Assembly: GCA_964016885.1 (NCBI GenBank)
Contig: OZ024742.1
Span: 326,988,001 to 327,052,000, forward strand
Length of the DNA stretch: 64,000 nucleotides
Reading direction: 5' to 3'
Source: Eledone cirrhosa
Taxonomy: Eukaryota
Both the position numbers and the translations under genes were made by a program. Within the stretch, counting starts at the first letter, position 1. Each line of letters begins with the position of its first letter. Shown piece by piece: positions 18,671-64,000 of this stretch. Under the pieces are notes generated by a model. That model searched no databases, was not told the origin of the DNA, and worked only from the letters and a program-made list of their open reading frames with translations.

Positions 18671-18754
18671 TGTGTTTTTTGCAAATATACAACAGCAAAG
18701 GACACACATACATTCCACAAAGACACACAAAGATACATATATATGTATGTATTC

Positions 18755-18807
<53 letters not shown>

Positions 18808-44552: not shown

Positions 44553-44624
44553 TCATACCTGGTCTAGTAGTTAGGATGGCACTCTCTCACCGCGACGGCC
44601 ACAGTTCGATTTCCCGCTTGGGAA
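44553..44624 (+). pseudogene. Degenerate tRNA-Glu(CTC) at the array edge
   Basis: 72 nt, CTC anticodon, broken acceptor, anticodon and T stems. Confidence 0.8.
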
Positions 44625-45147
44625 ATAGCATATCTCTTCCTTATTGCTTTATTTCCATCAAGTCATAACTATAAAGTATTTACTTTCAGTTCAATACATT
44701 TCAGAGATTTAAAATACATTTACTATATCATCATTGCTAAGGGGAAGAGAGAGGGGGAAGAAAGAAAAAAAAAAGGTGAAGGAAGCCACCTTAATTACAT
44801 GGGTGATAATGAGGCTAATGTGCTGGAAGAGCTCAGTACCCTCCCAAGAATATTAAGAAAATGTACTGCAAACAATGTCAAGAACTTCGTTGACAGCGTC
44901 CTTGCCCAGACAAACGTCTGAAATGACAGAGGGTGAAATAGCTAACAATGAGATCCTCGTCGTTGTCAGCGGCTCACAACAGAGCGGATCACAGTTGCTT
45001 GACGAAATATTAAAACCATTATTATTTTTAGGTAATTTTATCCTAGAAATTTGAGATACATAAATCGCCACACCCTCCTTATACACTGAAAATAAAAAAG
45101 TTATGATGTTGTTATTAAATGTCTTTCAGCATTCGATTTCATAAGCT

Positions 45148-45217
45148 TTCCAAGTGGTCTAGTGTAGGATTCCGCGCTCTCACCGCAGCGGCCGAGGTTA
45201 GATTCCTCGCTTTGGAA
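45148..45217 (+). pseudogene. Degenerate tRNA-Glu(CTC)
   Basis: D-loop deletion; T-loop TTAGATT. Confidence 0.8.
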
Positions 45218-45799
45218 ATATTTTGCGTTCAGTTTTTTTTTTTTCGTTTTTCTTTTTTTAATATGTTCTCCAATGCTTGGTAAGTTGTTATGCCGACTGA
45301 TAATATATATAAATATAGCAGTTAAATACATTGTTAATTTTCAAAATGCGTATGCAATGTCACAATGAAAAAAAAAAAGAAATATAGTAAAAGAAAACAG
45401 CGAGAGTTGACTGAATTGGAAAGAAGTATGTGAACAGTATATTTCCATTGAGACCCATGCTCAACATTACATTTAACACAGCCAGCGATACCTACTACAT
45501 CAGCCATAACAACCACGTAGGGTTTCTTAATTAGACTTGAGGAACTCAACTCGATTTCGTGGAATAAAACGATAGACGAGGGTCCGAGAAAACGAGAAGG
45601 CTCAATGGGAACCGATTAAAAATGGAAAAAGATTGCAAATTCCTGTCATTTAGTCATAGTCAGCCACTCGGAGTGGAAGTCAACAGTACCAGGGTTTTGG
45701 TTATAGCCATGAGATTGGCACCCGAGAAAGTCTCGAAATATATGGCATCCCAAATGAGAGATTTAACCTACTAAAACACGTATAAAAGTTTGACAACCG

Positions 45800-45870
45800 A
45801 CCTAAGTAGTCTAGTGGTTAGGTTTCCACTCCTTCACTACGGCAGCTGAGGTATGATTATCACTTGGTAA
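45800..45870 (+). pseudogene. Type D tRNA-Glu relic
   Basis: A-box region intact, B-box destroyed. Confidence 0.7.
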
Positions 45871-46695
45871 ATAACGTTTTTTCAATTTTTTTTCTATTCT
45901 TAATATTATAATAAATACATGGTAAGTTTATTTGCCAACTGATGATTATAACTATTTCAGTTAAATAAGTTGTACATTCTCCAAATGTGTATGTTATAAA
46001 AAAGAAAAAACTGAGAAAAGATAGCGAGAAGTGGGTGAAAATTTCTTCACATTTCCGTTGAGAACAAAGCTCAAGAGTACCTGGGTTTGTGGTCGTAGAA
46101 TTGAGGTACGCATTCGAAAAGGTATCGCGATATATGGCATCACAGATGAAAGAATTACCCGGCGAGTACGAGAAGAAATACCCCACTGTCACCAAGGGAG
46201 GTAAATAGCAATCAATAGCTCTCCCACTGCCTTTCTATAATACATGTTCGAATTTAGGAAATTTGAATATATGTCCATTTCGAAATCATGTTTTCTGGTA
46301 AATTTAAAACTTAACGATACTTGATGGAAATAAAACAATAGTCTAACCACTAGACCACTTGGGACAACTGAGTATAAGCGGCTGAAGGATAGCTTCTAAC
46401 TAAATTAGTAAATGTGAATCGATTTGAATCGATCACTTTAACAATTCGACAGAAAAGTTTAAATTCAATCAGCAAACTTGATTTCGAAATAGGCAAAACA
46501 CCTCAATATATTCTACATTGGAGGATGTGACATTGAAAGGTCATTTAGTAATAGAATTGACACTATAAACAGCCAGCGACATCTACTACATCAGCCATAC
46601 CTCTACGTAGGGTTCCTTCATTAGAAGTGATGTCAAAGTGATTCACATTTGCCAATTTAGTTATAAGCCGTCGCACAGCTTGTCATATTCATGTA

Positions 46696-46766
46696 TCCCA
46701 AGTAGTCTAGTGGTTAGGATTCCGCGCTTTCACCGCGGCGGCCGGGTTCGATTCCCCGCTTGGCAA
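46696..46766 (+). pseudogene. Type B variant with TTC anticodon (tRNA-Glu-TTC-like), probably non-functional
   Basis: Loop CTTTCAC, one G lost in the T stem, acceptor 3' strand CTTGGCA mismatched. Confidence 0.7.
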
Positions 46767-47328
46767 ACGTCTGTTATTTGTTTTTTTTCTTTCTTGTTTT
46801 ATTTGCATCAAGTCTCCTTGTTCTGCCAACCAGGAATCTATAGAATTATGTATTATTTATTTCAGTACATTTCAAATGTTCAGAAATACATTTATTAAAT
46901 CATTGTGACAGATGGGGAAAAAGGTGAAAGATGTTTCACGGGAATTTATATTTTGTCCGCACTCCGCGGACAAAATGTTGAGATTGTTGTGGTGGCGGTC
47001 GGCTGTACCTAGGTATGTGGTCCTGGCGTTGAGGTTCGCAGTATATGGCGTTCCAGATGAAAGACTTAATCTGCTAAAGAAGATAAACTATAGTCCCATC
47101 TGAGAGTTTAGCAGTAGCGAGCTCGAGACGAAAGATCCTATTGTCGTTAAGAGAGGAGAATCGCTATGAGTAACTACCCTGCTGCCTTTCAATAATACAT
47201 CTTCAAATTTAGAAGATTTTAATATGATATGTCCATTTCGAAACCATGTTTGCTGGTACATTTAAAGCTTAACGGAACTTGATACAAAAAAACAATAAGG
47301 AAAAAAATAAAACAAAAAAATAAAGGTA

Positions 47329-47399
47329 TACCCAAGCGAGGAATCGAACCCCGGCCGCCGCAGTGAAATGCGGGATCCTAACCACTAGACTACTTGGGA
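47329..47399 (-). pseudogene. Type C tRNA-Glu-like gene, 6-nt anticodon loop (TTTCAC)
   Basis: CCGCA-TTTCAC-TGCGG; A and B boxes intact; T1/T72 mismatch. Confidence 0.75.
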
Positions 47400-47510
47400 C
47401 AACTGGAAATGATTTGCTGAACTATCGCTTATAACTATGGTGTCGCAAATTAGAGATTTAACCTGATAAAACAGGTGTTGAAACACTGTCAATGATAAGT
47501 TTGACAACCG

Positions 47511-47581
47511 ACCTAAGAAGTCTAGTGGTTAGGTTTCCACGCCTTCACTGCGGCAGTTGGGGTATGAATATCACTTGCTAA
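47511..47581 (+). pseudogene. Type D tRNA-Glu relic
   Basis: GTCTAGTGGTTAGG retained; T-loop TATGAAT. Confidence 0.7.
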
Positions 47582-48043
47582 AAAAGCTGTGAAAAGATGG
47601 CGAGAAGTGGGTGAAATTTTCTTCACATTTCCGTTGAGAACAAAGTTCAAGAGTACCTGGGTTTGTGGTCGTAAAATTGAGGTTCGCATTAGAAAAGGTG
47701 TCGCAATATATGGCATTAGAGATAAAAGACTTAACTTGTTGAAGCAGGTAAACTATAATTTCATCTGGGTTATTACCACCGGCGAGTACGAGAAGAAATA
47801 CCCCACTGTCACCAAGGGAGGTAAATAGCAATCAATAGCTCTCCCACTGCCTTTTTATAATACATGTTCGAATTTAGGAAATTTTAATATGATATGTCCA
47901 TTTCGAAATCATGTTTTCTGGTAAATTTAAAACTTAACGAGACTTGATGGAAATAAAACAATAGGAAAAAAAAGATATTTCCCAAGTTATTCACATTTGC
48001 CAATTTAGTTATAAGCCGTTGCTCAGCCTGTCATGTTCGGGTA

Positions 48044-48115
48044 TCCCAAGTAGTCTAGTGGTTAGGATTCCACGCTCTCACCGCGGCGGCGGGGGTTCGA
48101 TTCCCCGCTTGGGAA
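48044..48115 (+). tRNA. tRNA-Glu(CTC), type B with two stem mismatches (possible pseudogene)
   Basis: CCACG anticodon stem, GGGGG T stem; different 3' flank. Confidence 0.6.
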
Positions 48116-48464
48116 ATAATAATTAGCGTTCAGTTTGTTTTTTTAATATGTTCACCAATGCTTGGCAATTTGTTATGTCGACTAATAACATATATAACTA
48201 TTGCAGTTAACTATAGTTTACTTGCTTTAGCAAGTAAACTATAATTTCATCTGGGTTATTACCATCGGCGAGTTCGAGAAGAAATACCCCACTGTCACCA
48301 AGGGAGGTAAATAGCAGTCAATAGCTCTCCCACTGCCTTTCTATAATACATGTTAGAATTTAGGAAATTTTAATATGATATGTCCATTTCGAAATCATGT
48401 TTTCTGGTAAATTTAAAACTTAATGAGACTTGATGGAAATAAAACAATAGGAAAAAAAAGATAT

Positions 48465-48536
48465 TTCCCAAGCGGGGAATCGAACCCCGGCCGCCGCGGT
48501 GAGAGCGCGGAATCCTAACCACTAGACCACTTGGGA
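48465..48536 (-). tRNA. tRNA-Glu(CTC), type A, intact
   Basis: TCCCAAG/CTTGGGA acceptor, CCGCG-CTCTCAC-CGCGG, CGGGG-TTCGATT-CCCCG; oligo-T terminator 5 nt downstream. Confidence 0.93.
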
Positions 48537-48868
48537 CAACGGTTTACAAGCGGCTGAACGATAGCTTCTAACTATATTAGTAAATGTGAATCAATTTGAA
48601 TCGATCACTTTAACAATTCGACAGAAAAGTTAAAATTCAATCAGCAAACTTGATTTCGAAATAGGCAAAACACCTCAATATATTCTACATTGGAGGATGT
48701 AACATTGAAAGGTTATTTAGTAATAGAATTGACACTATAAACAGCCAACGACATCTACTACATCAGCCATACCACCTACGTAGGGTTCCTTCATTAGAAG
48801 TGATGTCAAAGTGATTCACATTTGCCAATTTAGTTATAAGACGTTGGTCAGCTTGTCATGTTCAGGTA

Positions 48869-48940
48869 TCCCATGTAGTCTAGTGGTTAGGATTCCGCGC
48901 TCTCACCGCGGCGGCCGGGGTTCGATTCCACGCTTGGGAA
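48869..48940 (+). tRNA. tRNA-Glu(CTC), type B with two mismatches
   Basis: Acceptor TCCCATG, T-stem 3' strand CCACG; oligo-T terminator. Confidence 0.65.
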
Positions 48941-49487
48941 ATATCTTTTTTTTCCTATTGTTTTATATCCATCAAGTCTCCTTGCTCTGCCAACCAGGAA
49001 TCTAGAGAATTATGTATTATTTATTTCAGTACATTTCAAATGTTCAGAAATACATTTATTAAATCATTGTGACAGATGGGGAAAAAAGGTGAAAGATGCT
49101 TCACGGGAATTTATATTTTGTCCGCACAAAATATTGAGATTGTTGTCGTGGCGGTCGGCTGTACCTAGGTATTGTGGTCCTGGCGTTGAGGTTCGCATTA
49201 TATGGCGTTCCAGATGAAAGACTTAATCTGCTAAAGAAGATAAACTATAGTCCCATCTGAGAGTTTAGCAGTAGCGAGCTCGAGACGAAAGATCCTATTG
49301 TCGTTAAGAGAGGAGAATCGCTACGAGTAACTACCCTGCTGCCTTTCAATAATACATCTTCAAATTTAGAAGATTTTAATATGATATGTCCATTTCGAAA
49401 CCATGTTTGCTGGTACATTTAAAACTTAACGGAACTTGATGCAAAAAAAAACAATACGGAAAAAAATAAAATAAAAAAATAAAGGTA

Positions 49488-49558
49488 TACCCAAGCGAGG
49501 AATCGAAACCCGGTCGCCGCAGTGAACTGCGGGCTCCTAACCACTAGACTACTTGGGA
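49488..49558 (-). pseudogene. Type C tRNA-like, more decayed (loop GTTCAC)
   Basis: Homology to the other C copies. Confidence 0.7.
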
Positions 49559-49669
49559 CAACTGGAAATGATTTGCTGAACTATGGCTTATAACTATGGA
49601 GTCGCAAATTAGAGATTTAACCTGATAAAACAGATATTGAAAGTCTTTCAATGCGAAGTTTGACAACTG

Positions 49670-49740
49670 ACCTAAGAAGTCTAGTGATTAGGTTTCCACG
49701 CATTGACTACGGAAGTTGGGGTATGAATATCACGTGCTAA
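49670..49740 (+). pseudogene. Type D relic
   Basis: Homology to the other D copies. Confidence 0.65.
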
Positions 49741-50140
49741 AAAAGCTGGGAAAAGATGGCGAGAAGTGGTGGAAAATTTCTTCACATTTCCGTTGAGAAC
49801 AAAGCTCAAGAGTACCTGGGTTTGTGGTCGTAGAATTGAGGTTCGCATTAGAAAAGGTGTCGCGATATATGGCATCACAGATGAAATTATAGTTTACCTG
49901 CTAAAGCAGGTAAACTATAATTTCATCTGGGTTATTACCAGCGGCGAGTACGAGAAGAAATACCCCACTGTCACCAAGGGAGGTAAATAGCAATCAATAG
50001 CACTCCCACTGCCTTTCTATAATACATGTTCGAATTTAGGAAATTTTAATATGATATGACCATATCGAAATCATGTTTTCTGGTAGATTTAAAACTTAAT
50101 GAGACTTGATGGAAATAAAACAATAGGAAAAAAAAGATAT

Positions 50141-50212
50141 TTCCCAAGCGGGAAATCGAACTCCGGCCGCCGCGGTGAGAGCGCGGAATCCTAACCACTA
50201 GACCACTTGGGA
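50141..50212 (-). tRNA. tRNA-Glu(CTC), type A with T-stem mismatches
   Basis: T arm CGGAG-TTCGATT-TCCCG. Confidence 0.65.
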
Positions 50213-50909
50213 CAACTGTGTACAAGCGACAGAACGATAGCTTCTAACTAAATTAGTAAATGTGAATCGATTTGAATCGATCACTTTAACAATTCGACAG
50301 AAAAGTTAAAATTCAATCAGCATAGTTGATTTCGAAATAGGCAAAACACCTCAATATATTCTATTTAGAAGATTTTAATATGATATGTCCATTTCGAAAC
50401 CATGTTTGCTGGCAGATTTAAAACCTCACGGAACTTGATGCAAAAAAAAACAATAAGAAAAAAAATAAAATAAAAAAATAAAGGTATACCCAAGGTTTCC
50501 ACCCCTTCACTACGGCAGTTGGGGTATGAATATCACTTGCTAAAAAAGCTGGGAAAAGATGGCGAGAAGTGGGTGAAAATTTTTTCACATTTCCGTTGAG
50601 AACAAAGTTCAAGAGTACCTGGGTTTGTGGTCGTAGAATTGAGGTACGCATTAAGGAAAGTGTCGCGATATATGGCATCACAGATTAAATTATAGTTTAC
50701 CTGCTAAAGCAGGTGAACTATAACTTCATCTGGGTTATTACCTTCGGCGAGTTCGAGAAGAAACACCCACTGTCACCAGTAATTTGCAATCAACAGCTCT
50801 GTTCGAATTTAGGAAATTTGAATATATGTCCATTTCGAAATCATGTTTTTTGGTAAATTTAAAACTTAATGAGACTTGATGGAAATAAAACAATAGGAAA
50901 AAAAGATAT

Positions 50910-50981
50910 TTCCCAAGCGGGGAATCGAACCCCGGCCGCCGCGGTGAGAGCGCGGAATCCTAACCACTAGACCACTTGGGA
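50910..50981 (-). tRNA. tRNA-Glu(CTC), type A, intact
   Basis: Perfect cloverleaf plus oligo-T terminator. Confidence 0.93.
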
Positions 50982-51312
50982 CAACGGTTTACAAGCGGCT
51001 GAACGATAGCTTCTAACTATATTAGTAAATGTGAATCAATTTGAATCGATCACTTTAACAATTCGACAGAAAAGTTAAAATTCAATCAGCAAACTTGATT
51101 TCGAAATAGGCAAAACACCTCAATATATTCTACATTGGAGGATGTAACATTGAAAGGTCATTTAGTAATAGAATTGACACTATAAACAGCCAACGACATC
51201 TACTACATCAGCCATACCTCTACGTAGGGTTCCTTCATTAGAAGTGATGTCAAAGTGATTCACATTTGCCAATTTAGTTATAAGACGTTGGTCAGCTTGT
51301 CATGTTCAGGTG

Positions 51313-51384
51313 TCCCAAGTAGTCTAGTGGTTAGGATTCCGCGCTCTCACCGCGGCGGCCGGGGTTCGATTCCCCGCTTGGGAA
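51313..51384 (+). tRNA. tRNA-Glu(CTC), type B, intact
   Basis: Perfect cloverleaf plus oligo-T terminator. Confidence 0.93.
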
Positions 51385-51937
51385 ATATCTTTTTTTTTCC
51401 TATTGTTTTATTTGCATCAAGTCTCCTTGCTCTGCCAACCAGGAATCTAGAGAATTATGTATTATTTATTTCAGGACATTTCAAATGTTCAGAAATACAT
51501 TTATTAAATCATTGTGACAGATGGGGAAAAAAGGTGAAAGATGTTTCACAGGAATTTATATTTTGTCCGCACTCCGCGGACAAAATGTTGAGATTGTTGT
51601 GGTGGCGGTCGGCTGTACCTAGTTATGTGGTCCTGGCTTGGAGGTTGTATTATATGGCGTTCCAGATGAAAGACTTGATCTGCTAAAGAAGATAAACTAT
51701 AGTCCCATCTGAGAGTTTAGCAGTAGCGAGCTCGAGACGAAAGATCCTATTGTCGTTAAGAGAGGAGAATCGCTATGAGTAACTACCCTGCTGCCTTTCA
51801 ATAATACATCTTCAAATTTAGAAGATTTTAATATGATATGTCCATTTCGAAACCATGTTTGCTGGTACATTTAAAGCTTAACGGAACTTGATACAAAAAA
51901 ACAATAAGGAAAAAAATAAAACAAAAAAATAAAGGTA

Positions 51938-52008
51938 TACCCAAGCGAGGAATCGAACCCCGGCCGCCGCAGTGAAATGCGGGATCCTAACCACTAGACT
52001 ACTTGGGA
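51938..52008 (-). pseudogene. Type C tRNA-like (6-nt loop TTTCAC)
   Basis: As 47329-47399. Confidence 0.75.
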
Positions 52009-52119
52009 CAACTGGAAATGATTTGCTGAACTATCGCTTATAACTATGGCGTCGCAAATTAGAGATTTAACCTGATAAAACAGGTGTTGAAAGACTGTCA
52101 ATGATAAGTTTGACAACCG

Positions 52120-52190
52120 ACCTAAGAAGTCTAGTGGTTAGGTTTCCACGCCTTCACTGCGGCAGTTGGGGTATGAATATCACTTGCTAA
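52120..52190 (+). pseudogene. Type D relic
   Basis: As 47511-47581. Confidence 0.7.
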
Positions 52191-52590
52191 AAAAGCTGTG
52201 AAAAGATGGCGAGAAGTGGGTGAAATTTTCTTCACATTTCCGTTGAGAACAAAGTTCAAGAGTACCTGGGTTTGTGGTCGTAGAATTGAGGTTTGCATTA
52301 GAAAAGGTGTCGCGATATATGGCATCACAGATGAAATTATAGTTTACTTGCTAAAGCAGGTCAACTATAATTTCATCTGGGTTATTACCAGCGGCGAGTA
52401 CGAGAAGAAATACCCCACTGTCACCAAGGGAGGTAAATAGCAATCAATAGCACTCCCACTGCCTTTCTATAATACATGTTCGAATTTAGGAAATTTTAAT
52501 ATGATATGTCCATTTCGAAATCATGTTTTCTGGTAAATTTAAAACTTAATGACACTTGATGGAAATAAAACAATAGGAAAAAAAAGATAT

Positions 52591-52662
52591 TTCACAAGCG
52601 GGGAATCGAACCCCGGCCGCCGCGGTGAGAGCGCGGAATCCTAACCACCAGACCACTTGGGA
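52591..52662 (-). tRNA. tRNA-Glu(CTC), type A with acceptor mismatch and A14G (possible pseudogene)
   Basis: 3' strand CTTGTGA; D-loop begins with G. Confidence 0.6.
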
Positions 52663-52955
52663 CAACTGTGTACAAGCGGCTGAACGATAGCTTCTAACTA
52701 TATTAGTATATGTGAATCGATTTGAATCGATCACTTTAACAATTCGACAGAAAAGTTTAAATTCAATCAGCAAACTTGATTTGGAAATAGACAAAACACC
52801 TCAATATATTCTACATTGGAGGATGTAACATTGAAAGGTCATTTAGTAATAGAAATGACACTATAAACAGCCAGCGACATCTACTACATCAGCCATACCT
52901 CTACGTAGGGTTCCTTCATTAGAAGTGATGTCAAAGTGATTCACATTTGCCAATT

Positions 52956-52993
52956 TAGTTATAAGCCGTTGCTCAGCTTGCCTTGCTCAGGTA
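52956..52993 (+). promoter_or_regulatory. Putative upstream Pol III element (TATA-like near -33, TCAGC at -21, CAG at -6); example shown for one B gene
   Basis: The same motifs occur at identical spacing upstream of A, B and C gene types while the intervening bases differ. Confidence 0.55.
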
Positions 52994-53065
52994 TCCCAAG
53001 TAGTCTAGTGGTTAGGATTCCGCGCTCTCACCGCGGCGGCCGGGGTTCGATTCCCCGCTTGGGAA
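52994..53065 (+). tRNA. tRNA-Glu(CTC), type B, intact
   Basis: Perfect cloverleaf plus oligo-T terminator. Confidence 0.93.
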
Positions 53066-53613
53066 ATAGCTTTTTTTTCCTATTGTTTTATTTCCATCAA
53101 GTCTCCTTGCTCTGCCAACCAGGAATCTAGAGCATTATGTATTATTTATTTCAGTACATTTCAAATGTTCAGAAAATGTTCATTGTGACAGATGGGGAAA
53201 AAATGGTGAAAGATGTTTGACGGGAATTTATATTTTATCCGCACTCCGCTGACAAGATGTTGAGATTGTTGTGGTGGCGGTCGGCTGTACCTAGGTATTG
53301 TGGTCCTGGCGTTGAGGTTCGCATTATATGGCGTTCCAGATGAAAGACTTAATCTGCTAAAGAAGATAAACTATAGTCCCATCTGAGAGTTTAGCAGTAG
53401 CGAGCTCGAGACGAAAGATCCTATTGTCGTTAAGAGAGGAGAAGCGCTACGAGTAACTACCCTGCTGCCTTTCAATAATACATCTTCAAATTTAGAAGAT
53501 TTTAATATGATATGTCCATTTCGAAACCATGTTTGCTGGTACATTTAAAACTTAACGGAACTTGATGCAAAAAAAAACAATAAGGAAAAAAAAAAAAAAA
53601 TAAAATAAAGGTA

Positions 53614-53684
53614 TACCCAAGCGAGGAATCGAACCCCGGCCGCCGCAGTGAGATGCGGGATCCTAACCACTAGACTACTTGGGA
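53614..53684 (-). pseudogene. Type C tRNA-like (6-nt loop TCTCAC)
   Basis: CCGCA-TCTCAC-TGCGG. Confidence 0.75.
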
Positions 53685-53795
53685 CTACTGGAAATGATTT
53701 GCTGAACTATCGCTTATAACTATGGCGTCGCAAATTAGAGATTTAACCTGATAAAACAGATATTGAAAGTCTTTCAATGCGAAATTTGACAACCG

Positions 53796-53866
53796 ACCTA
53801 AGAAGTCTAGTGGTTAGGTTTCCACGCCTTCACTGCGGCAGTTGGGGTATGAATATCACGTGCTAA
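53796..53866 (+). pseudogene. Type D relic
   Basis: Homology to the other D copies. Confidence 0.7.
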
Positions 53867-54232
53867 AAAAGCTGGGAAAAGATGGCGAGAAGTGGTAGAA
53901 AATTTCTTCACATTTCCGTTGAGAACAAAGCTCAAGAGTACCTGGGTTTGTATTCGTAGAATTGAGGTACGCATTAGAAAAGGTGTCGCGATATATGGCA
54001 TCACAGATGAAACTATAGTTTACCTGCTAAAGCAGGTAAACTATAATTTCATCTGGGATATTACCATCGGCGAGTTCGAGAAGAAACACCCACTGTCACC
54101 AGTAAATTGCAATCAACAGCTCTGTTCGAATTTAGGAAATTTGAATATATGTCCATTTCGAAATCATGTTTTTTGGTAGATTTCAAACTTAACGAGACTT
54201 GATGGAAATAAAACAATAGGAAAAAATGATAT

Positions 54233-54295
54233 TTCCCAACCGGGGAAACGAACCCCGGCCGCCGCGCGGAATCCTAACCACCAGACCACTTGGGA
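54233..54295 (-). pseudogene. Type A allele lacking the anticodon loop (9-nt deletion)
   Basis: 63 nt; GTGAGAGCG removed between GCG repeats. Confidence 0.88.
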
Positions 54296-54626
54296 CAACT
54301 GAGTACAAGCGGCTGAACGATAGCTTCTAACTATAGTATTATATGTGAATCGATTTGAATCGATCACTTTAACAATTCGACAGAAAAGTTTAAATTCAAT
54401 CAGCAAACTTGATTTGGAAATAGACAAAACACCTCAATATATTCTACATTGGAGGATGTAACATTGAAAGGTCATTTAGTAATAGAAATGACACTATAAA
54501 CAGCCAGCGACATCTACTACATCAGCCATACCTCTACGTAGGGTTCCTTCATTAGAAGTGATGTCAAAGTGATTCACATTTGCCAATTTAGTTATAAGCC
54601 GTTGCTCAGCTTGCCTTGCTCAGGTA

Positions 54627-54698
54627 TCCCAAGTAGTCTAGTGGTTAGGATTCCGCGCTCTCACCGCGGCGGCCGGGGTTCGATTCCCCGATTGGGAA
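54627..54698 (+). tRNA. tRNA-Glu(CTC), type B variant (G7-A66 mismatch)
   Basis: 3' end ATTGGGAA; otherwise canonical. Confidence 0.8.
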
Positions 54699-55257
54699 AC
54701 TTCTCCTTTTTTTTTTCTTTTTTTTCTTGTTTTATTTGCATCAAGTCTCCTTGCTCTGCCAACCAGGAATCTAGAGAATTATGTATTATTTATTTCAGTA
54801 CATTTCAAATGTTCAGAAAATGTTCATTGTGACTGATGGGAAAAAATGGTGAAAGATGTTTGACGGGAATTTATATTTTATCCGCACTCCGCTGACAAGT
54901 TGTTGAGATTGTTGTGGTAGCGGTCGGCTGTACCTAGTTATTGTGGTCCTGGCGTTGAGGTTCGCATTATATGGCGTTCCAGATGAAAGACTTAATCTGC
55001 TAAAGAAGATAAACTATAGTCCCATCTGAGAGTTTAGCAGTAGCGAGCTCGAGACGAAAGATCCTATTGTCGTTAAGAGAGGAGAATCGCTATGAGTAAC
55101 TACCCAGCTGCCTTTCAATAATACATCTTCAAATTTAGAAGATTTTAATATGATATGTCCATTTCGAAACCATGTTTTCTGTTACATTTAAAACTTAACG
55201 GAACTTGATGCAAAAAAAAATAATAAGAAAAAAAAAAAAAATCTGAAAATAAAGGTA

Positions 55258-55328
55258 TACCCAAGCGAGGAATCGAACCCCGGCCGTCGCAGTGAGATGC
55301 GGGATCCTAACCACTAGACTACTTGGGA
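55258..55328 (-). pseudogene. Type C tRNA-like (loop TCTCAC)
   Basis: Homology; extra anticodon-stem mismatch. Confidence 0.72.
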
Positions 55329-55439
55329 CAACTGGAAATTATTTGCTGAACTATGGCTTATAATTATGGCGTCGCAAATGTGAGACTTAACCTGATAAAA
55401 CAGATATTGTAAGCCTTTCGATGCGAAGTTTGACAACCG

Positions 55440-55510
55440 ACCTAAGAAGTCTAGTGGTTAGCTTTCCACGCCTTCACTGCGGCAGTTGGGGTATGAATAT
55501 GACTTGCTAA
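55440..55510 (+). pseudogene. Type D relic
   Basis: Homology to the other D copies. Confidence 0.7.
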
Positions 55511-55910
55511 CACAGCTGGGAAAAGATAGCGAGAAATGGGTCAAAGCTCCTCAATTTTTCAGTTGAGAACAAAGCTCAACGGTACCTGGGTGTGTGGTCG
55601 TAGAATTGAGGTACGCATTAGAAAAGGTGTCGCGATATATGGCATCACAGATGAAATTATAGTTTACTTGCTAAAGCAGGTAAACTATAATTTCATCTGG
55701 GTTATTACCACCGGCGAGTACGAGAAGAAACACCCCACTGTCACCAAGGGAGGTAAATAGCAATCAATAGCTCTCCCACTGCCTTTCTATAATACATGTT
55801 CGAATTTAGGAAATTTTAATATGATATGTCCATTTCGAAATCATGTTTTCTGGTAAATTTAAAACTTAATGAGACTTGATGGAAATAAAACAATAGGAAA
55901 AAAAAGATAT

Positions 55911-55982
55911 TTCCCAAGCGGGGAATCGAACCCCGGCCGCCGCGGTGAGAGCGCGGAATCCTAACCACTAGACCACTTGGGA
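55911..55982 (-). tRNA. tRNA-Glu(CTC), type A, intact
   Basis: Perfect cloverleaf plus oligo-T terminator. Confidence 0.93.
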
Positions 55983-56313
55983 CAACTGTGTACAAGCGGC
56001 TGAAGTATAGCTTCTAACTAAATTAGTAAATGTGAATCGATTTGAATCGATCACTTTAACAATTCGACAGAAAAGTTTAAATTCAATCAGCAAACTTGAT
56101 TTCGAAATAGGCAAAACACCTCAATATATTCTACATTGGAGGATGTAACATTGAAAGGTCATTTAGTAATAGAATTGACACTATAAACAGCCAACGACAT
56201 CTACTACATCAGCCATACCTCTACGTAGGGTTCCTTCATTAGAAGTGATGTCAAAGTGATTCCCATTTGCCAATTTAGTTATAAGCCGTTGCTCAGCTTG
56301 CCTTGCTCAGGTA

Positions 56314-56385
56314 TCCCAAGTAGTCTAGTGGTTAGGATTCCGCGCTCTCAGCGCGGCGACCGGGGTTCGATTCCCCGCTTGGGAA
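56314..56385 (+). tRNA. tRNA-Glu(CTC), type B with loop substitutions
   Basis: Anticodon loop CTCTCAG, variable loop CGAC; stems intact. Confidence 0.78.
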
Positions 56386-56938
56386 ATATCTTTTTTTTTC
56401 CTATTGTTTTATTTGCATCAAGTCTCCTTGCTCTGCCAACTAGGAATCTAGAGAATTATGTATTTTTTATTTCAGGACATTTCAAATGTTCAGAAATACA
56501 TTTATTAAATCATTGTGACAGATGGGGAAAAAAGGTGAAAGATGTTTCACAGGAATTTATATTTTGTCCGCGCTCCGCGGACAAAATGTTGAGATTGTTG
56601 TGGTGGCGGTCGGCTGTACCTAGTTATGTGGTCCTGGCTTGGAGGTTGCATTATATGGCGTTCCAGATGAAAGACTTGATCTGCTAAAGAAGATAAACTA
56701 TAGTCCCATCTGAGAGTTTAGCAGTAGCGAGCTCGAGACGAAAGATCCTATTGTCGTTAAGAGAGGAGAATCGCTATGAGTAACTACCCTGCTGCCTTTC
56801 AATAATACATCTTCAAATTTAGAAGATTTTAATATGATATGTCCATTTCGAAACCATGTTTGCTGGTACATTTAAAGCTTAACGGAACTTGATACAAAAA
56901 AACAATAAGGAAAAAAATAAAACAAAAAAATAAAGGTA

Positions 56939-57009
56939 TACCCAAGCGAGGAATCGAACCCCGGCCGCCGCAGTGAAATGCGGGATCCTAACCACTAGAC
57001 TACTTGGGA
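56939..57009 (-). pseudogene. Type C tRNA-like (loop TTTCAC)
   Basis: As 47329-47399. Confidence 0.75.
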
Positions 57010-57120
57010 CAACTGGAAATGATTTGCTGAACTATCGCTTATAACTATGGCGTCGCAAATTAGAGATTTAACCTGATAAAAGAGATATTGTAAGTCTTTC
57101 AATGCGAAGTTTGACAACCG

Positions 57121-57191
57121 ACCTAAGAAGTCTAGTGGTTAGGTTTCCACGCCTTCACTGCGGCAGTTGGGGTATGAATATCACTTGCTAA
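57121..57191 (+). pseudogene. Type D relic
   Basis: Homology to the other D copies. Confidence 0.7.
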
Positions 57192-57590
57192 AAAAGCTGT
57201 GAAAAGATGGCGAGAAGTGGGTGAAATTTTCTTCACATTTCCGTTGAGAACAAAGTTCAAGAGTACCTGGGTTTGTGGTCGTAGAATTGAGGTTCGCATT
57301 AGAAAAGGTGTCGCGATATATGGCATCACAGATGAAATTATAGTTTACTTGCTAAAGCAGGTAAACTATAATTTCATCTGGGTTATTACCAGCGGCGAGT
57401 ACGAGAGGAAATACCCCACTGTCACCAAGGGAGGTAAATAGCAATCAATAGCACTCCCACTGCCTTTCTATAATACATGTTCGAATTTAGGAAATTTTAA
57501 TATGATATGTCCATTTCGAAATCATGTTTTTTGGTAGATTTCAAACTTAACGAGACTTGATGGAAATAAAACAATAGGAAAAAATGATAT

Positions 57591-57653
57591 TTCCCAACCG
57601 GGGAAACGAACCCCGGCCGCCGCGCGGAATCCTAACCACCAGACCACTTGGGA
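57591..57653 (-). pseudogene. Anticodon-less type A allele
   Basis: Same 9-nt deletion as 54233-54295. Confidence 0.88.
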
Positions 57654-57984
57654 CAACTGAGTACAAGCGGCTGAACGATAGCTTCTAACTATAGTATTAT
57701 ATGTGAATCGATTTGAATCGATCACTTTAACAATTCGACAGAAAAGTTTAAATTCAATCAGCAAACTTGATTTGGAAATAGACAAAACACCTCAATATAT
57801 TCTACATTGGAGGATGTAACATTGAAAGGTCATTTAGTAATAGAAATGACACTATAAACAGCCAGCGACATCTACTACATCAGCCATACCTCTACGTAGG
57901 GTTCCTTCATTAGAAGTGATGTCAAAGTGATTCACATTTGCCAATTTAGTTATAAGCCGTTGCTCAGCTGGCCTTGCTCAGGTA

Positions 57985-58056
57985 TCCCAAGTAGTCTAGT
58001 GGTTAGGATTCCGCGCTCTCACCGCGGCGGCCGGGGTTCGATTCCCCGCTTGGGAA
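57985..58056 (+). tRNA. tRNA-Glu(CTC), type B, intact
   Basis: Perfect cloverleaf plus oligo-T terminator. Confidence 0.93.
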
Positions 58057-58604
58057 ATAGCTTTTTTTTCCTATTGTTTTATTTCCATCAAGTCTCCTTG
58101 CTCTGCCAACCAGGAATCTCGAGAATTATGTATTATTTATTTCAGTACATTTCAAATGTTCAGAAAATGTTCATTGTGACAGATGGGAAAAAATGGTGAA
58201 AGATGTTTGACGGGAATTTATATTTTATCCGCACTCCGCTGACAAGATGTTGAAATTGTTGTGGTGGCCGTCGGCTGTACCTAGGTATTGTGGTCCTGGC
58301 GTTGAGGTTCGCATTATATGGCGTTCCAGATGAAAGACTTAATCTGCTAAAGAAGATAAACTATAGTCCCATCTGAGAGTTTAGCAGTAGCGAGCTCGAG
58401 ACGAAAGATCCTATTGTCGTTAAGAGAGGAGAAGCGCTACGAGTAACTACCCTGCTGCCTTTCAATAATACATCTTCAAATTTAGAAGATTTTAATATGA
58501 TATGTCCATTTCGAAACCATGTTTGCTGGCAGATTTAAAACTTAACGGAACTTGATGCAAAAAAAAACAATAAGGAAAAAAAAAAAAAGAAAAAAATAAA
58601 GGTA

Positions 58605-58675
58605 TACCCAAGCGAGGAATCGAACCCCGGCCGCCGCAGTGAGATGCGGGATCCTAACCACTAGACTACTTGGGA
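58605..58675 (-). pseudogene. Type C tRNA-like (loop TCTCAC)
   Basis: As 53614-53684. Confidence 0.75.
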
Positions 58676-58786
58676 CTACTGGAAATGATTTGCTGAACTA
58701 TCGCTTATAACTATGGCGTCGCAAATTAGAGATTTAACCTGATAAAACAGATATTGAAAGTCTTTCAATGCGAAATTTGACAACCG

Positions 58787-58857
58787 ACCTAAGAAGTCTA
58801 GTGGTTAGGTTTCCACGCCTTCACTGCGGCAGTTGGGGTATGAATATCACGTGCTAA
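58787..58857 (+). pseudogene. Type D relic
   Basis: Homology to the other D copies. Confidence 0.7.
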
Positions 58858-59223
58858 AAAAGCTGGGAAAAGATGGCGAGAAGTGGTGGAAAATTTCTTC
58901 ACATTTCCGTTGAGAACAAAGCTCAGGAGTACCTGGGTTTGTATTCGTAGAATTGAGGTACGCATTAGAAAAGGTGTCGCGATATATGGCATCACAGATG
59001 AAACTATAGTTTACCTGCTAAAGCAGGTAAACTATAATTTCATCTGGGATATTACCATCGGCGAGTTCGAGAAGAAACACCCACTGTCACCAGTAAATTG
59101 CAATCAACAGCTCTGTTCAAATTTAGGAAATTTGAATATATGTCCATTTCGAAATCATGTTTTTTGGTAGATTTCAAACTTAACGAGACTTGATGGAAAT
59201 AAAACAATAGGAAAAAATGATAT

Positions 59224-59286
59224 TTCCCAACCGGGGAAACGAACCCCGGCCGCCGCGCGGAATCCTAACCACCAGACCACTTGGGA
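59224..59286 (-). pseudogene. Anticodon-less type A allele
   Basis: Same 9-nt deletion as 54233-54295. Confidence 0.88.
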
Positions 59287-59617
59287 CAACTGAGTACAAG
59301 CGGCTGAACGATAGCTTCTAACTATAGTATTATATGTGAATCGATTTGAATCGATCACTTTAACAATTCGACAGAAAAGTTTAAATTCAATCAGCAAACT
59401 TGATTTGGAAATAGACAAAACACCTCAATATATTCTACATTGGAGGATGTAACATTGAAAGGTCATTTAGTAATAGAATTGACCCTATAAACAGCCAGCG
59501 ACATCTACTACATCAGCCATACCTCTACGTAGGGTTCCTTCATTAGAAGTGATGTCAAAGTGATTCACATTTGCCAATTTAGTTATAAGCCGTTGCTCAG
59601 CTTGCCTTGCTCAGGTA

Positions 59618-59689
59618 TCCCAAGTAGTCTAGTGGTTAGGATTCCGCGCTCTCACCGCGGCGGCCGGGGTTCGATTCCCCGATTGGGAA
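59618..59689 (+). tRNA. tRNA-Glu(CTC), type B variant (G7-A66 mismatch)
   Basis: As 54627-54698. Confidence 0.8.
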
Positions 59690-60239
59690 ACTACTCCTTT
59701 TTTTTTTCTTGTTTTATTTGCATCAAGTCTCCTTGCTCTGCCAACCAGGAATCTAGAGAATTATGTATTATTTATTTCAGTACATTTCAAATGTTCAGAA
59801 AATGTTCATTGTGACTGATGGGAAAAAATGGTGAAAGATGTTTGACGGGAATTTATATTTTATCCGCACTCCGCTGACAAGTTGTTGAGATTGTTGTGGT
59901 AGCGGTCGGCTGTACCTAGGTATTGTGGTCCTGGCGTTGAGGTTCGCATTATATGGCGTTCCAGATGAAAGACTTAATCTGCTAAAGAAGATAAACTATA
60001 GTCCCATCTGAGAGTTTAGCAGTAGCGAACTCGAGACGAAAGATCCTATTGTCGTTAAGAGAGGAGAATCGCTATGAGTAACTACCCTGCTGCCTTTCAA
60101 TAATACATCTTCAAATTTAGAAGATTTTAATATGATATGTCCATTTCGAAACCATGTTTTCTGTTACATTTAAAACTTAACGGAACTTGATGCAAAAAAA
60201 AACAATAAGAAAAAAAAAAAAAATCTGAAAATAAAGGTA

Positions 60240-60310
60240 TACCCAAGCGAGGAATCGAACCCCGGCCGCCGCAGTGAGATGCGGGATCCTAACCACTAGA
60301 CTACTTGGGA
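60240..60310 (-). pseudogene. Type C tRNA-like (loop TCTCAC)
   Basis: As 53614-53684. Confidence 0.75.
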
Positions 60311-60421
60311 CAACTGGAAATTATTTGCTGAACTATGGCTTATAATTATGGCGTCGCAAATGTGAGACTTAACCTGATAAAACAGATATTGTAAGCCTTT
60401 CGATGCGAAGTTTGACAACCG

Positions 60422-60492
60422 ACCTAAGAAGTCTAGTGGTTAGCTTTCCACGCCTTCACTGCGGCAGTTGGGGTATGAATATGACTTGCTAA
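60422..60492 (+). pseudogene. Type D relic
   Basis: Homology to the other D copies. Confidence 0.7.
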
Positions 60493-60892
60493 AACAGCTG
60501 GGAAAAGATAGCGAGAAATGGGTCAAAGCTCCTCAATTTTTCAGTTGAGAACAAAGCTCAAGGGTACCTGGGTGTGTGGTCGTAGAATTGAGGTACGCAT
60601 TAGAAAAGGTGTCGCGATATATGGCATCACAGATGAAATTATAGTTTACTTGCTAAAGCAGGTAAACTATAATTTCATCTGGGTTATTACCACCGGCGAG
60701 TACGAGAAGAAATACCCCACTGTCACCAAGGGAGGTAAATAGCAATCAATAGCTCTCCCACTGCCTTTCTATAATACATGTTCGTATTTAGGAAATTTTA
60801 ATATGATATGTCCATTTCGAAATCATGTTTTCTGGTAAATTTAAAACTTAATGAGACTTGATGGAAATAAAACAATAGGAAAAAAAAGATAT

Positions 60893-60964
60893 TTCCCAAG
60901 CGGGGAATCGAACCCCGGCCGCCGCGGTGAGAGCGCGGAATCCTAACCACTAGACCACTTGGGA
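60893..60964 (-). tRNA. tRNA-Glu(CTC), type A, intact
   Basis: Perfect cloverleaf plus oligo-T terminator. Confidence 0.93.
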
Positions 60965-61295: not shown

Positions 61296-61367
61296 TCCCA
61301 AGTAGTCTAGTGGTTAGGATTCCGCGCTCTCACCGCGGCGGCCGGGGTTCGATTCCCCGCTTGGGAA
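61296..61367 (+). tRNA. tRNA-Glu(CTC), type B, intact
   Basis: Perfect cloverleaf plus oligo-T terminator. Confidence 0.93.
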
Positions 61368-61920
61368 ATATCTTTTTTTTTCCTATTGTTTTATTTGCAT
61401 CAAGTCTCCTTGCTCTGCCAACCAGGAATCTAGAGAATTATGTATTATTTATTTCAGGACATTTCAAATGTTCAGAAATACATTTATTAAATCATTGTGA
61501 CAGATGGGGAAAAAAGGTGAAAGATGTTTCACAGGAATTTATATTTTGTCCGCGCTCCGCGGACAAAATGTTGAGATTGTTGTGGTGGCGGTCGGCTGTA
61601 CCTAGTTATGTGGTCCTGGCTTGGAGGTTGCATTATATGGCGTTCCAGATGAAAGACTTGATCTGCTAAAGAAGATAAACTATAGTCCCATCTGAGAGTT
61701 TAGCAGTAGCGAGCTCGAGACGAAAGATCCTATTGTCGTTAAGAGAGGAGAATCGCTATGAGTAACTACCCTGCTGCCTTTCAATAATACATCTTCAAAT
61801 TTAGAAGATTTTAATATGATATGTCCATTTCGAAACCATGTTTGCTGGTACATTTAAAGCTTAACGGAACTTGATACAAAAAAACAATAAGGAAAAAAAT
61901 AAAACAAAAAAATAAAGGTA

Positions 61921-61991
61921 TACCCAAGCGAGGAATCGAACCCCGGCCGCCGCAGTGAAATGCGGGATCCTAACCACTAGACTACTTGGGA
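61921..61991 (-). pseudogene. Type C tRNA-like (loop TTTCAC)
   Basis: As 47329-47399. Confidence 0.75.
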
Positions 61992-62102
61992 CAACTGGAA
62001 ATGATTTGCTGAACTATCGCTTATAACTATGGCGTCGCAAATTAGAGATTTAACCTGATAAAACAGATATTGTAAGTCTTTCAATGCGAAGTTTGACAAC
62101 CG

Positions 62103-62173
62103 ACCTAAGAAGTCTAGTGGTTAGGTTTCCACGCCTTCACTGCGGCAGTTGGGGTATGAATATCACTTGCTAA
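62103..62173 (+). pseudogene. Type D relic
   Basis: Homology to the other D copies. Confidence 0.7.
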
Positions 62174-62573
62174 AAAAGCTGTGAAAAGATGGCGAGAAGT
62201 GGGTGAAATTTTCTTCACATTTCCGTTGAGAACAAAGTTCAAGAGTACCTGGGTTTGTGGTCGTAGAATTGAGGTTCGCATTAGAAAAGGTGTCGCGATA
62301 TATGGCATCACAGATGAAATTATAGTTTACTTGCTAAAGCAGGTAAACTATAATTTCATCTGGGTTATTACCAGCGGCGAGTACGAGAAGAAATACCCCA
62401 CTGTCACCAAGGGAGGTAAATAGCAATCAATAGCACTCCCACTGCCTTTCTATAATACATGTTCGAATTTAGGAAATTTTAATATGATATGTCCATTTCG
62501 AAATCATGTTTTCTGGTAAATTTAAAACTTAATGAGACTTGATGGAAATAAAACAATAGGAAAAAAAAGATAT

Positions 62574-62645
62574 TTCCCAAGCGGGGAATCGAACCCCGGC
62601 CGCCGCGGTGAGAGCGCGGAATCCTAACCACCAGACCACTTGGGA
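62574..62645 (-). tRNA. tRNA-Glu(CTC), type A with A14G
   Basis: All stems intact; D-loop starts GGTGG. Confidence 0.78.
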
Positions 62646-62976
62646 CAACTGTGTACAAGCGGCTGAACGATAGCTTCTAACTATATTAGTATATGTGAAT
62701 CGATTTGAATCGATCACTTTAACAATTCGACAGAAAAGTTTAAATTCAATCAGCAAACTTGATTTGGAAATAGACAAAACACCTCAATATATTCTACATT
62801 GGAGGATGTAACATTGAAAGGTCATTTAGTAATAGAAATGACACTATAAACAGCCAGCGACATCTACTACATCAGCCATACCTCTACGTAGGGTTCCTTC
62901 ATTAGAAGTGATGTCAAAGTGATTCACATTTGCCAATTTAGTTATAAGCCGTTGCTCAGCTTGCCTTGCTCAGGTA

Positions 62977-63048
62977 TCCCAAGTAGTCTAGTGGTTAGGA
63001 TTCCGCGCTCTCACCGCGGCGGCCGGGGTTCGATTCCCCGATTGGGAA
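62977..63048 (+). tRNA. tRNA-Glu(CTC), type B variant (G7-A66 mismatch)
   Basis: As 54627-54698. Confidence 0.8.
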
Positions 63049-63607
63049 ACTACTCCTTTTTTTTTTCTTTTTTTTCTTGTTTTATTTGCATCAAGTCTCC
63101 TTGCTCTGCCAACCAGGAATCTAGAGAATTATGTATTATTTATTTCAGTACATTTCAAATGTTCAGAAAATGTTCATTGTGACTGATGGGAAAAAATGGT
63201 GAAAGATGTTTGACGGGAATTTATATTTTATCCGCACTCCGCTGACAAGTTGTTGAGATTGTTGTGGTAGCGGTCGGCTGTACCTAGGTATTGTGGTCCT
63301 GGCGTTGAGGTTCGCATTATATGGCGTTCCAGATGAAAGACTTAATCTGCTAAAGAAGATAAACTATAGTCCCATCTGAGAGTTTAGCAGTAGCGAGCTC
63401 GAGACGAAAGATCCTATTGTCGTTAAGAGAGGAGAATCGCTATGAGTAACTACCCTGCTGCCTTTCAATAATACATCTTCAATTTGAGAAGATTTTAATA
63501 TGATATGTCCACTTCGAAACCATGTTTACTGTTACATTTAAAACTTAACGGAACTTGATGCAAAAAAAAACAATAAGAAAAAAAAAAAAAATCTGAAAAT
63601 AAAGGTA

Positions 63608-63678
63608 TACCCAAGCGAGGAATCGAACCCCGGCCGCCGCAGTGAGATGCGGGATCCTAACCACTAGACTACTTTGGA
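63608..63678 (-). pseudogene. Type C tRNA-like (loop TCTCAC)
   Basis: Homology; extra acceptor mismatch. Confidence 0.72.
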
Positions 63679-63789
63679 CAACTGGAAATTATTTGCTGAA
63701 CTATGGCTTATAATTATGGCGTCGCAAATGTGAGACTTAACCTGATAAAACAGATATTGTAAGCCTTTCGATGCGAAGTTTGACAACCG

Positions 63790-63860
63790 ACCTAAGAAGT
63801 CTAGTGGTTAGCTTTCCACGCCTTCACTGCGGCAGTTGGGGTATGAATATGACTTGCTAA
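63790..63860 (+). pseudogene. Type D relic
   Basis: Homology to the other D copies. Confidence 0.7.
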
Positions 63861-64000
63861 AACAGCTGGGAAAAGATAGCGAGAAATGGGTCAAAGCTCC
63901 TCAATTTTTCAGTTGAGAACAAAGCTCAAGGGTACCTGGGTGTGTGGTCGTAGAATTGAGGTACGCATTAGAAAAGGTGTCGCGATATATGGCATCACAG

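Follow-up and report, generated by a model that had tools for sequence, protein, structure and literature searches.

The locus described here, on contig OZ024742.1 of Eledone cirrhosa, is a tandem tRNA-Glu cluster that occupies positions 44553-64000 of the window (the whole stretch of 64,000 nucleotides that was analysed, whose numbering is used throughout) and continues past its end. According to the most probable reading of the sequence (roughly 0.72), an array of ~17 monomers would have arisen inside an older Glu(CTC) cluster through unequal crossing-over that was blind to the quality of the genes being copied, and the locus would today be an ordinary supplier of tRNA-Glu(CTC), active in part. 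Two stages can be told apart in this history: one tRNA-plus-flank unit was duplicated repeatedly, in both orientations, to give a 50-kb cluster, and a 1.68-kb slice of that cluster, containing two genes and two broken copies, was then tandemly repeated in three types. As it stands, a 29-kb core of ~17 monomers lies within the older scrambled 50-kb cluster.

A search of the window using one of its own tRNAs as nhmmer query recovered 44 tRNA-like units between 44553 and 63861, all of them derived from Glu(CTC), in agreement with the more than 40 Glu-derived units of the original prediction. ARAGORN called 28 tRNAs in the window, and Rfam yielded 28 matches over 42000-64000, every one of them to RF00005, with no other RNA family in the window part of the array. 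The proposed arrangement of four units in alternating orientation, A(-), B(+), C(-) and D(+), also stands, with start-to-end spacings of 332-333 bp for A-B, 548-563 bp for B-C, 112 bp for C-D and either 366 or 399-400 bp for D-A. The prediction of at least 19 kb of tandem ~1.63-1.69-kb monomers from 44553 onwards, on the other hand, holds for the monomer length (full monomers measure 1633-1687 bp) but not for the tandem arrangement of the entire window part, which is not tandem at 44.5-46.3 kb, is irregular at 46.3-50.9 kb and follows a strict ABCD order only from 50910. The first of these parts is a 5' halo (44553..46300, + strand) with three degenerate, non-tandem tRNA-Glu-derived units (44553-44624, 45148-45217 and 45800-45871), whose flanks are partly homologous to the monomer. 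The second is an irregular array edge (46343..50909) with the unit order B C D B A B C D A and internal deletions, and its stretch 46343-47582 shares 96% identity with an X-type monomer. The regular core begins at 50910, runs on past 64000 and ends at contig position 327063527, 11.5 kb beyond the window end, where a 19-kb scrambled 3' halo follows. Its monomers are arranged head to tail with similar spacers (TRF period ~1681, 12.8 copies in one row), and its GC content is 0.395.

Pairwise differences among 16 aligned monomers range from 0.4 to 7.1%, and the monomer alignment separates three types, X, Y and Z, that are ~4-6% apart. Copies of one type differ by only 0.4-2.2%, which supports the view that the array was recently amplified; the claim that it is homogenised is valid within each type but not between the three, which make up a trimeric higher-order repeat. 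This is also reflected in the mean monomer divergence, of 5.3% at lag 1, 3.0% at lag 3 and 2.2% at lag 7, and in the order of types along the core (X Y Z X Y Z X Z Y Z X Y Z X), in which the XYZ pattern is broken by recombinants. The first trimer (50910..55910; X 50910-52590, Y 52591-54232, Z 54233-55910) contains three perfect genes among its 12 units, and the second (55911..60892; X 55911-57590, Y 57591-59223, Z 59224-60892) includes a recombinant Y monomer that carries a Z-type A unit. The trimer would have formed through divergence of the monomers and their subsequent re-duplication, and the breaks in the XYZ order probably stem from later unequal exchanges.

Of the four units, A and B alone could be tRNA genes, and many of their copies are damaged. 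The window holds eight perfect 72-mers, exactly as many perfect Glu(CTC) units as had been predicted, four of them at A (48465, 50910, 55911 and 60893) and four at B (51313, 52994, 57985 and 61296). As in a tandem array of genes, there are intact units with an A box, a B box and oligo-T, 14 of the 69 core units being perfect and 55 imperfect; the combination of both boxes with a T5 run is found in 17/18 B units and 7/17 A units. The X-type A unit at 60893..60964 (-) is a perfect tRNA-Glu(CTC) with G9 and oligo-T after it, identical in sequence to nine dispersed genes, and the X-type B unit at 61296..61367 (+) is equally perfect and followed by oligo-T, with a cluster-specific A9. The Z-type A unit at 59224..59286 (-) has lost 9 nt of its anticodon arm and carries three substitutions. 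That deletion is present in 5/17 A units (five core monomers), A14G in four further A units and C65A in 5/18 B units; the lesions recur by monomer type, and disabling ones were amplified together with the repeat. A recurring 152-aa frame overlies B, presumably by chance.

No copy of C or D is intact. C is a 71-nt tRNA-like copy in which the anticodon loop has 6 nt and the first acceptor pair is broken, and the one at 61921..61991 (-) retains the A box, the B box and a T run; the two boxes are kept in 16/17 copies of C. D, as seen at 62103..62174 (+), is a pseudogene with ~20 substitutions, having lost its B box in 17/17 core copies. C-type copies also occur in the halo, at 77335 and 91203 (window numbering extended past its end), which makes C older than the array. 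A tRNA-derived SINE family was considered and rejected, because the genome matches are confined to the cluster for 15/16 of the C pattern, 17/17 of the D pattern and 40/42 of the A9 allele. Thermodynamic folding failed as a discriminator between genes and pseudogenes, all seven z-scores falling between -1.8 and 0.05.

The origin of the four units from a common tRNA-plus-flank ancestor is recorded in their surroundings. The four units have mutually homologous flanks (the A-C downstream score is 283, versus at most 40 for shuffled sequences), and within one monomer there are matches of 401 bp at 75% in direct and of 179 bp at 87% in inverted orientation. The 3' halo is covered to 96% by other parts of the cluster, its matches of at least 200 bp being direct in 159 cases and inverted in another 159, with a median identity of 74%. 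The alternating orientation would thus be a legacy of the older inverted duplications and would need no function of its own. Bodies are poorer in shared variants than spacers (4/144 for A plus B and 4/143 for C plus D, versus 123/1384; Fisher p ~0.01 each, for sites that are not independent), which points to some degree of constraint or conversion during the amplification, and conservation is as strong in the broken C and D bodies as in the A and B genes. The halo lacks dispersed repeats, which counts against pure drift, as drift does not explain that absence. In a comparison based on the idea of transcription-associated mutagenesis (PMC6130373), shared variants were slightly more frequent in the 40-bp stretches flanking A, B and C than in the remaining spacer (upstream, 16/120 vs 73/1065), and more frequent still in those flanking the dead D unit (9/40 and 10/40).

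Some information on activity comes from copies outside the cluster. The two A9 matches found elsewhere in the genome, L048 (C type, no body differences) and L044 (B type, three differences), match their closest source over precisely 5 nt upstream and then along a short trailer to a T run, with no further flank. A third dispersed copy, L045, shows the same kind of leader and trailer match, in its case to a dispersed gene, and the 5-nt leader match is missing in L050 (one of the four dispersed copies tested). Since a 5-nt leader with a short trailer is what pre-tRNA retrocopies carry, B and C were likely transcribed; the retrocopy-like insertions suggest germ-line transcription by Pol III that began at position -5, which the dispersed copies would mark as the likely start site. 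No RNA run was listed among those that contain the array, which says nothing about its expression. L044 is a full B-type copy directly followed by ~80 nt of dispersed repeat, between TA runs, and in this junction it resembles the mammalian tRNA/retroelement chimeras reported in PMC13174262. Most of those consist of antisense halves of tRNAs and show target-site duplications, whereas the copies found here span the full length, leader and trailer included, and a search for target-site duplications at L044 and L048 identified none.

Could the array instead have been amplified and kept by selection for more tRNA-Glu(CTC)? The locus holds 24/33 of the exact 48-mer matches in the assembly, it has 15 perfect Glu(CTC) genes among 24 inspected, the other nine being dispersed, and A and B bodies carry fewer shared variants than spacers, all of which would suit such selection. 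It is nonetheless unlikely, as just 3/12 units per trimer are perfect, the C and D bodies are conserved equally and nine perfect genes are available elsewhere; moreover, PMC2888827 argues that selection on tRNAs does not explain swings in tRNA gene copy number. The low share of perfect core units, together with the copied lesions, speaks against dosage as the driver of the amplification. That the array contributes to tRNA-Glu(CTC) dosage is, however, plausible from the share of perfect genes that sit at the locus.

It is rather unlikely, too, that C is more than debris, that is, a conserved and transcribed tRNA-like RNA, retained in every monomer facing an active tRNA-Glu gene, with the convergent B-C pair giving overlapping read-through or a non-translating Pol III RNA, and with C now retroposing like a founding SINE. 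This reading would be favoured by the age of C, which predates the array, by the persistence of its boxes, by a conservation like that of B, by one exact copy of it elsewhere in the genome whose ends are pre-tRNA-like, and by run X4 (which may or may not be RNA), whose coverage extends over the B-C interval and not over the A-B or D-A spacers. If true, a functional RNA from the broken C unit would raise the importance of the locus.

The array may also be seen as a dead or silenced tRNA-derived satellite, with the dispersed genes doing all the work, an improbable situation even though most core units are imperfect and tRNA clusters of Arabidopsis have been reported as epigenetically silenced (PMC13437025). 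Against it stand the fourteen core genes that remain perfect, the two retrocopy-like insertions with array-specific alleles and pre-tRNA-like ends, and a sequence with neither CpG depletion nor an excess of CpG transitions (26/363 CpG vs 44/664 other C/G sites, p 0.80). By the same counts, decay through CpG deamination is not supported as the source of the lesions.

More improbable still is that the cluster is kept as a barrier or boundary dense in TFIIIC or Pol III, where the promoter boxes would be more important than the RNA. PMC4041453 discusses the barrier activity of tRNA genes, and the idea would account for the boxes preserved in C, which cannot be a normal tRNA, and for bodies conserved whatever their coding ability. 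The setting of the cluster might point in the same direction: dispersed repeats make up 0% of the old halo vs 19-23% of the flanks, and CpG o/e is 0.87-0.96 vs 0.50-0.59. The predicted absence of dinucleotide microsatellites at 46.3-64 kb was borne out over a wider span, with none in 50.4 kb, whereas the flanks have 39 over 44.5 kb and 69 over 59 kb. Yet D is equally conserved despite the loss of its B box, two other tRNA clusters are likewise microsatellite-free and CpG-rich, and a CpG o/e of at least 0.85 is also reached by 5/38 background 10-kb loci. Furthermore, both flanks are alike in being repeat-rich, and a set of 120 ORFs from the flanks and the halo revealed no gene that might be shielded, the Pfam domains above cut-off (reverse transcriptase, endonuclease and PHD) belonging to LINE-like frames; one halo frame resembles CrtO below cut-off (22.8 vs 27.3 bits).

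Finally, an assembly expansion of a few units is hardly credible, as the core has no N gaps, its monomers bear both type-specific and private variants, and read depth in run X1, although this best short-read sample is possibly the assembled one and then no independent individual, is 130-193 on the array vs 6.3-8.6 on the flank, a ratio of 18-27 that fits the assembly, with stray reads of two other individuals (very few) also ~12-15 times deeper on the array. For other individuals, the array was covered at a depth of 0-5 by reduced-representation reads.

Tandem tRNA arrays have already been described in human, Hydractinia, plants and Entamoeba, and this locus adds one more animal. The human tRNA VNTR at 1q23.3 (PMC4041453; Darrow and Chadwick 2014) has a GC-rich 7.3-kb monomer with several isotypes, tRNA-Glu included, present in 9-43 copies with 98% unit identity and a CTCF site. 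The E. cirrhosa array is similar in its CpG-rich, kilobase-sized tandem monomers with several tRNA genes each and in its copy number (~17), but differs in a monomer of 1.68 kb with 39% GC, in the derivation of all units from a single isotype, Glu(CTC), half of them pseudogenes, and in its trimeric higher-order structure. Hydractinia and Nematostella have evenly spaced arrays of many isotypes, with tens to hundreds of similar tRNA copies plus spacers (PMC11067881), and E. cirrhosa is likewise an invertebrate with tRNA arrays of more than one isotype; alternating orientation, co-amplified pseudogenes and higher-order repeats would distinguish its array from those described in that paper, whose supplementary tables may bear on these features. 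Single-isotype tandem arrays are known from plants (Arabidopsis Pro, maize Ile and Ala, barley Gln), as is a module with position-specific copies of one isotype, namely the two Tyr copies in the Ser-Tyr-Tyr array of Arabidopsis (PMC13437025). In contrast to Arabidopsis, where tRNA pairs are nearly all parallel and clusters are reported silenced, orientation alternates here and the retrocopy-like evidence points to transcription. The arrays of Entamoeba, which contain nearly all of its tRNA genes, also consist of tandem units with several (up to five) tRNA genes, but their spacers are made of short tandem repeats (PMC2652664), whereas the spacers at 46-64 kb hold none beyond A/T runs, and dispersed genes exist.

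What the locus offers is a well-resolved formation series, from dispersed gene to scrambled local cluster, tandem monomer and higher-order repeat. In addition, identical copies elsewhere usually block the scoring of array-gene transcription (PMC4041453), but the genes of this array carry marker alleles of their own (A9, the 6-nt loop and distinct leaders), so that their transcription could be scored by ordinary tRNA sequencing.

The rarity implied by the original prediction is not supported, considering the published single-isotype arrays and two further tRNA clusters in the same genome, which brings their number in E. cirrhosa to at least three. One is a larger Glu(TTC)/Asp(GTC) array of at least 180 kb and the other a dense Thr(AGT) cluster. 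The spacers of the Glu(CTC) and Glu(TTC)/Asp arrays share no homology beyond the tRNA bodies and one 29-bp match, so the two arrays arose separately. Among the genome tRNA candidates, 63 of 552,091 were scored, and 13 of the 16 resulting places were followed; these comprised one dense cluster (C1, with two matches) and, elsewhere, 0-2 genes per 10 kb.

The tRNA-Glu(CTC) locus is genuine and well defined, a tandem tRNA array of an already known kind, in a 3.0-Gb genome rich in microsatellites and LINE-like frames. Searching with a profile of one tRNA of the window (G000:C3:326988001-327052000) recovers 44 Glu-like units from 44553 onward, and ARAGORN and Rfam each make 28 tRNA calls in the window. 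The unit positions agree with the order A(-), B(+), C(-), D(+) and with the spacings of the original prediction, whose count of eight perfect genes in the window was also reproduced. On an extended ruler, in which window coordinates are carried on through the adjoining 100 kb (earliest N gap at 102315), the units total 106. The tandem core, at ~46.3-75.5 kb, holds 69 of them (17 A, 18 B, 17 C and 17 D), with strict ABCD order beginning at 50910, and the halo around it, which is older, comprises 3 units on the 5' side (44.5-46.3 kb), 31 on the 3' side (75.9-94.8 kb) and 3 outlying ones as far as 104.5 kb. The array is no assembly artefact. Contigs of the short-read run X1 over window 42500-48040 have depths of 6.3-8.6 on five flank or halo pieces whereas three array pieces reach 130, 145 and 193, an array/flank ratio of 18-27 that is not a true copy number, in a run that may come from the assembled sample itself. 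Two reduced-representation runs from other individuals, with few reads, have mean depths of 2.3 and 1.7 in nine array bins versus ~0.15 in nine flank bins (one repeat-bearing flank bin was left out of this mean).

Within the monomer, unit A has the canonical Glu(CTC) sequence, identical in 9/9 dispersed genes inspected, and unit B differs from it by G9A. Unit C, of 71 nt, has an anticodon loop of 6 nt and its first acceptor pair is broken, but it keeps the A box, the B box and the T run in 16 of its 17 copies; unit D carries ~20 changes and lacks the B box in 17/17. With C and D broken, each monomer therefore contains at most two genes. Perfect units number 14 of the 69 in the core, plus one in the halo. 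Units at 46696 and 94754 read as Glu(TTC), and a halo unit at 87369-87440 on the extended ruler (in L013) has a damaged Glu body whose anticodon has drifted to Lys(CTT).

Tandem tRNA arrays are known at human 1q23.3 (PMC4041453), in Entamoeba (PMC2652664), in Hydractinia for every one of the 20 isotypes (PMC11067881; its supplementary tables could hold similar cases), and with a single isotype in plants (PMC13437025); homogeneous clusters and anti-parallel tRNA pairs have been described as well, parallel pairs being the majority (PMC2888827). The accessible part of the giant squid genome paper gives tRNA counts and mentions no arrays (PMC6962438), and titles and abstract openings, mainly from non-subscription journals, mention neither this locus nor tRNA arrays in cephalopods, nor any tRNA array with a higher-order repeat. 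What makes this array a variant is that each monomer has four units of one isotype, alternating in orientation and half of them broken, that the higher-order structure is trimeric, and that its marker alleles have retrocopy-like offspring.

Flank homology, both direct and inverted, is common to units A, B, C and D and shared by 29 of the 37 halo units, and other parts of the cluster cover 96% of the 3' halo, direct and inverted hits being equally numerous and the median identity 74%. Thus one tRNA-plus-flank unit, duplicated locally again and again, gave rise to the cluster, and the tandem array is younger than the alternating orientation. Among 16 aligned monomers, three types differ by ~4-6% from one another and by 0.4-2.2% internally; they are arranged as X Y Z X Y Z X Z Y Z X Y Z X, and several monomers contain an A segment of another type. 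Lesions go with type: five A units have a 9-nt anticodon-arm deletion, five B units have C65A, and four A units have A14G, by itself or together with a single further change. Unequal crossing-over is a general mechanism for tandem arrays and would have produced this one; the most likely reading, with a probability of roughly 0.7, is a gene cluster that is active in part and owes its shape to such exchange. Dosage selection may have amplified or maintained the array, which holds 24 of 33 exact 48-nt core matches and, among the copies inspected, 15 perfect 72-mers versus nine dispersed.

The array may also have a boundary function. Some features do not fit simple drift. Shared variants in the tRNA bodies are at ~1/3 of the spacer level, equally for A+B and C+D, which may be due to any one of conversion between the bodies, constraint on promoters or a clustering of spacer changes. 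Across the whole 50-kb cluster there are no dispersed repeats or dinucleotide microsatellites, despite the old halo. Finally, X4, a run from another sample with library kind unspecified, has array contigs only at window 46777-47425 (the B-C interval plus unit C) and none on the A-B and D-A spacers, whereas X1 covers B-C, A-B and D-A.

Could the array be wholly silent? It may be, but the dispersed copies carry signs of transcription. The 5' pattern with A9, the cluster-specific allele, has 42 matches, 40 of them inside the cluster. Of the two outside, the one at C4:289.84 Mb (L048) is a C unit with an identical body (0 differences), and the one at C4:32.94 Mb (L044) is a B unit that has 3 differences and runs into ~80 nt of dispersed repeat, between TA runs. 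Both share with their closest-body source (115 possible sources) exactly 5 nt upstream, starting at an A that C precedes in the source, and a trailer of 6-14 nt. Locus L045 likewise matches a dispersed gene for 5 nt upstream and L050 has no leader match, the pattern being present in 3/4 copies tested. Pol III starts and T-run stops define pre-tRNA ends, which these leader and trailer ends fit; in contrast, a DNA-level halo copy (L043:5149-5676, C2:63.66 Mb) spans 529 bp at 91.7% identity to its source at 80922-81427 on the extended ruler. The pattern of unit D, which has no B box, is absent outside the cluster (17/17 matches inside), a weak control. From these sequences we infer that units B and C were probably transcribed in the germ line at some recent time. 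Short DNA patches may instead be the source of the dispersed copies, and no target-site duplication was identified at L044 or L048. An 11-bp inverted repeat flanks the C-type copy at L048:4922-5025, whose trailer recurs, reverse-complemented, just 5' of its leader. At L045:5389-5700 and L044:4660-4830, full-length tRNA-Glu copies within TA runs are fused at the T run to dispersed repeat, namely to the head of a tRNA-like repeat in L045 and to 80 nt of a repeat end in L044, and by sequence look like chimeric retrocopies. The L043 copy, on another chromosome, adjoins a long TA run.

With two further clusters besides the Glu(CTC) array, this genome habitually forms tandem and single-isotype tRNA clusters. 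One lies on the chromosome of the Glu(CTC) array, where divergent pairs of Glu(TTC)(-) and Asp(GTC)(+), repeated every 1337 bp, start at C3:277.237 Mb and extend over at least 180 kb (G000:C3:277237000-277417600; L022-L025, L034-L039, L051-L055), spacer matches reaching at least 277.417 Mb; the first 91 kb have 68 Glu-position and 66 Asp calls, the next 50 kb 38 and 38, and 67 monomers have a mean divergence of 3.0%. A dense cluster at G000:C1:243650001-243680000 (L056-L058), the ends of which were not found, packs 50 tRNA calls into 30 kb. Of these, 43 are Thr(AGT) and the others apparent variants; they share a single strand, and the cluster includes partial tandem blocks of 1.2-1.9 kb. Neither cluster has dinucleotide microsatellites, and CpG o/e is 0.88-0.93 in the two. 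Elsewhere, lone high-scoring calls (L060, L062, L063, L064, L065, L067, L068, L069) have anticodons rare in eukaryotes, namely Ala GGC (6 loci), Val GAC and Thr GGT, and may represent the head portions of a tRNA-derived repeat family. A 745-aa open frame at L015:3898-6132 (-) (G000:C3 ~327.096-327.098 Mb), with a YRDD motif, a Cys-rich C-terminal part and no Pfam hit, sits between 1129-bp inverted repeats of 99.2% identity and resembles a young Penelope-like retroelement. The 5' flank of the array contains LINE-like reverse transcriptase and endonuclease frames at window 11255-13900 and 16361-18901 (-), and a minisatellite of 21-bp period at 8954-11100.
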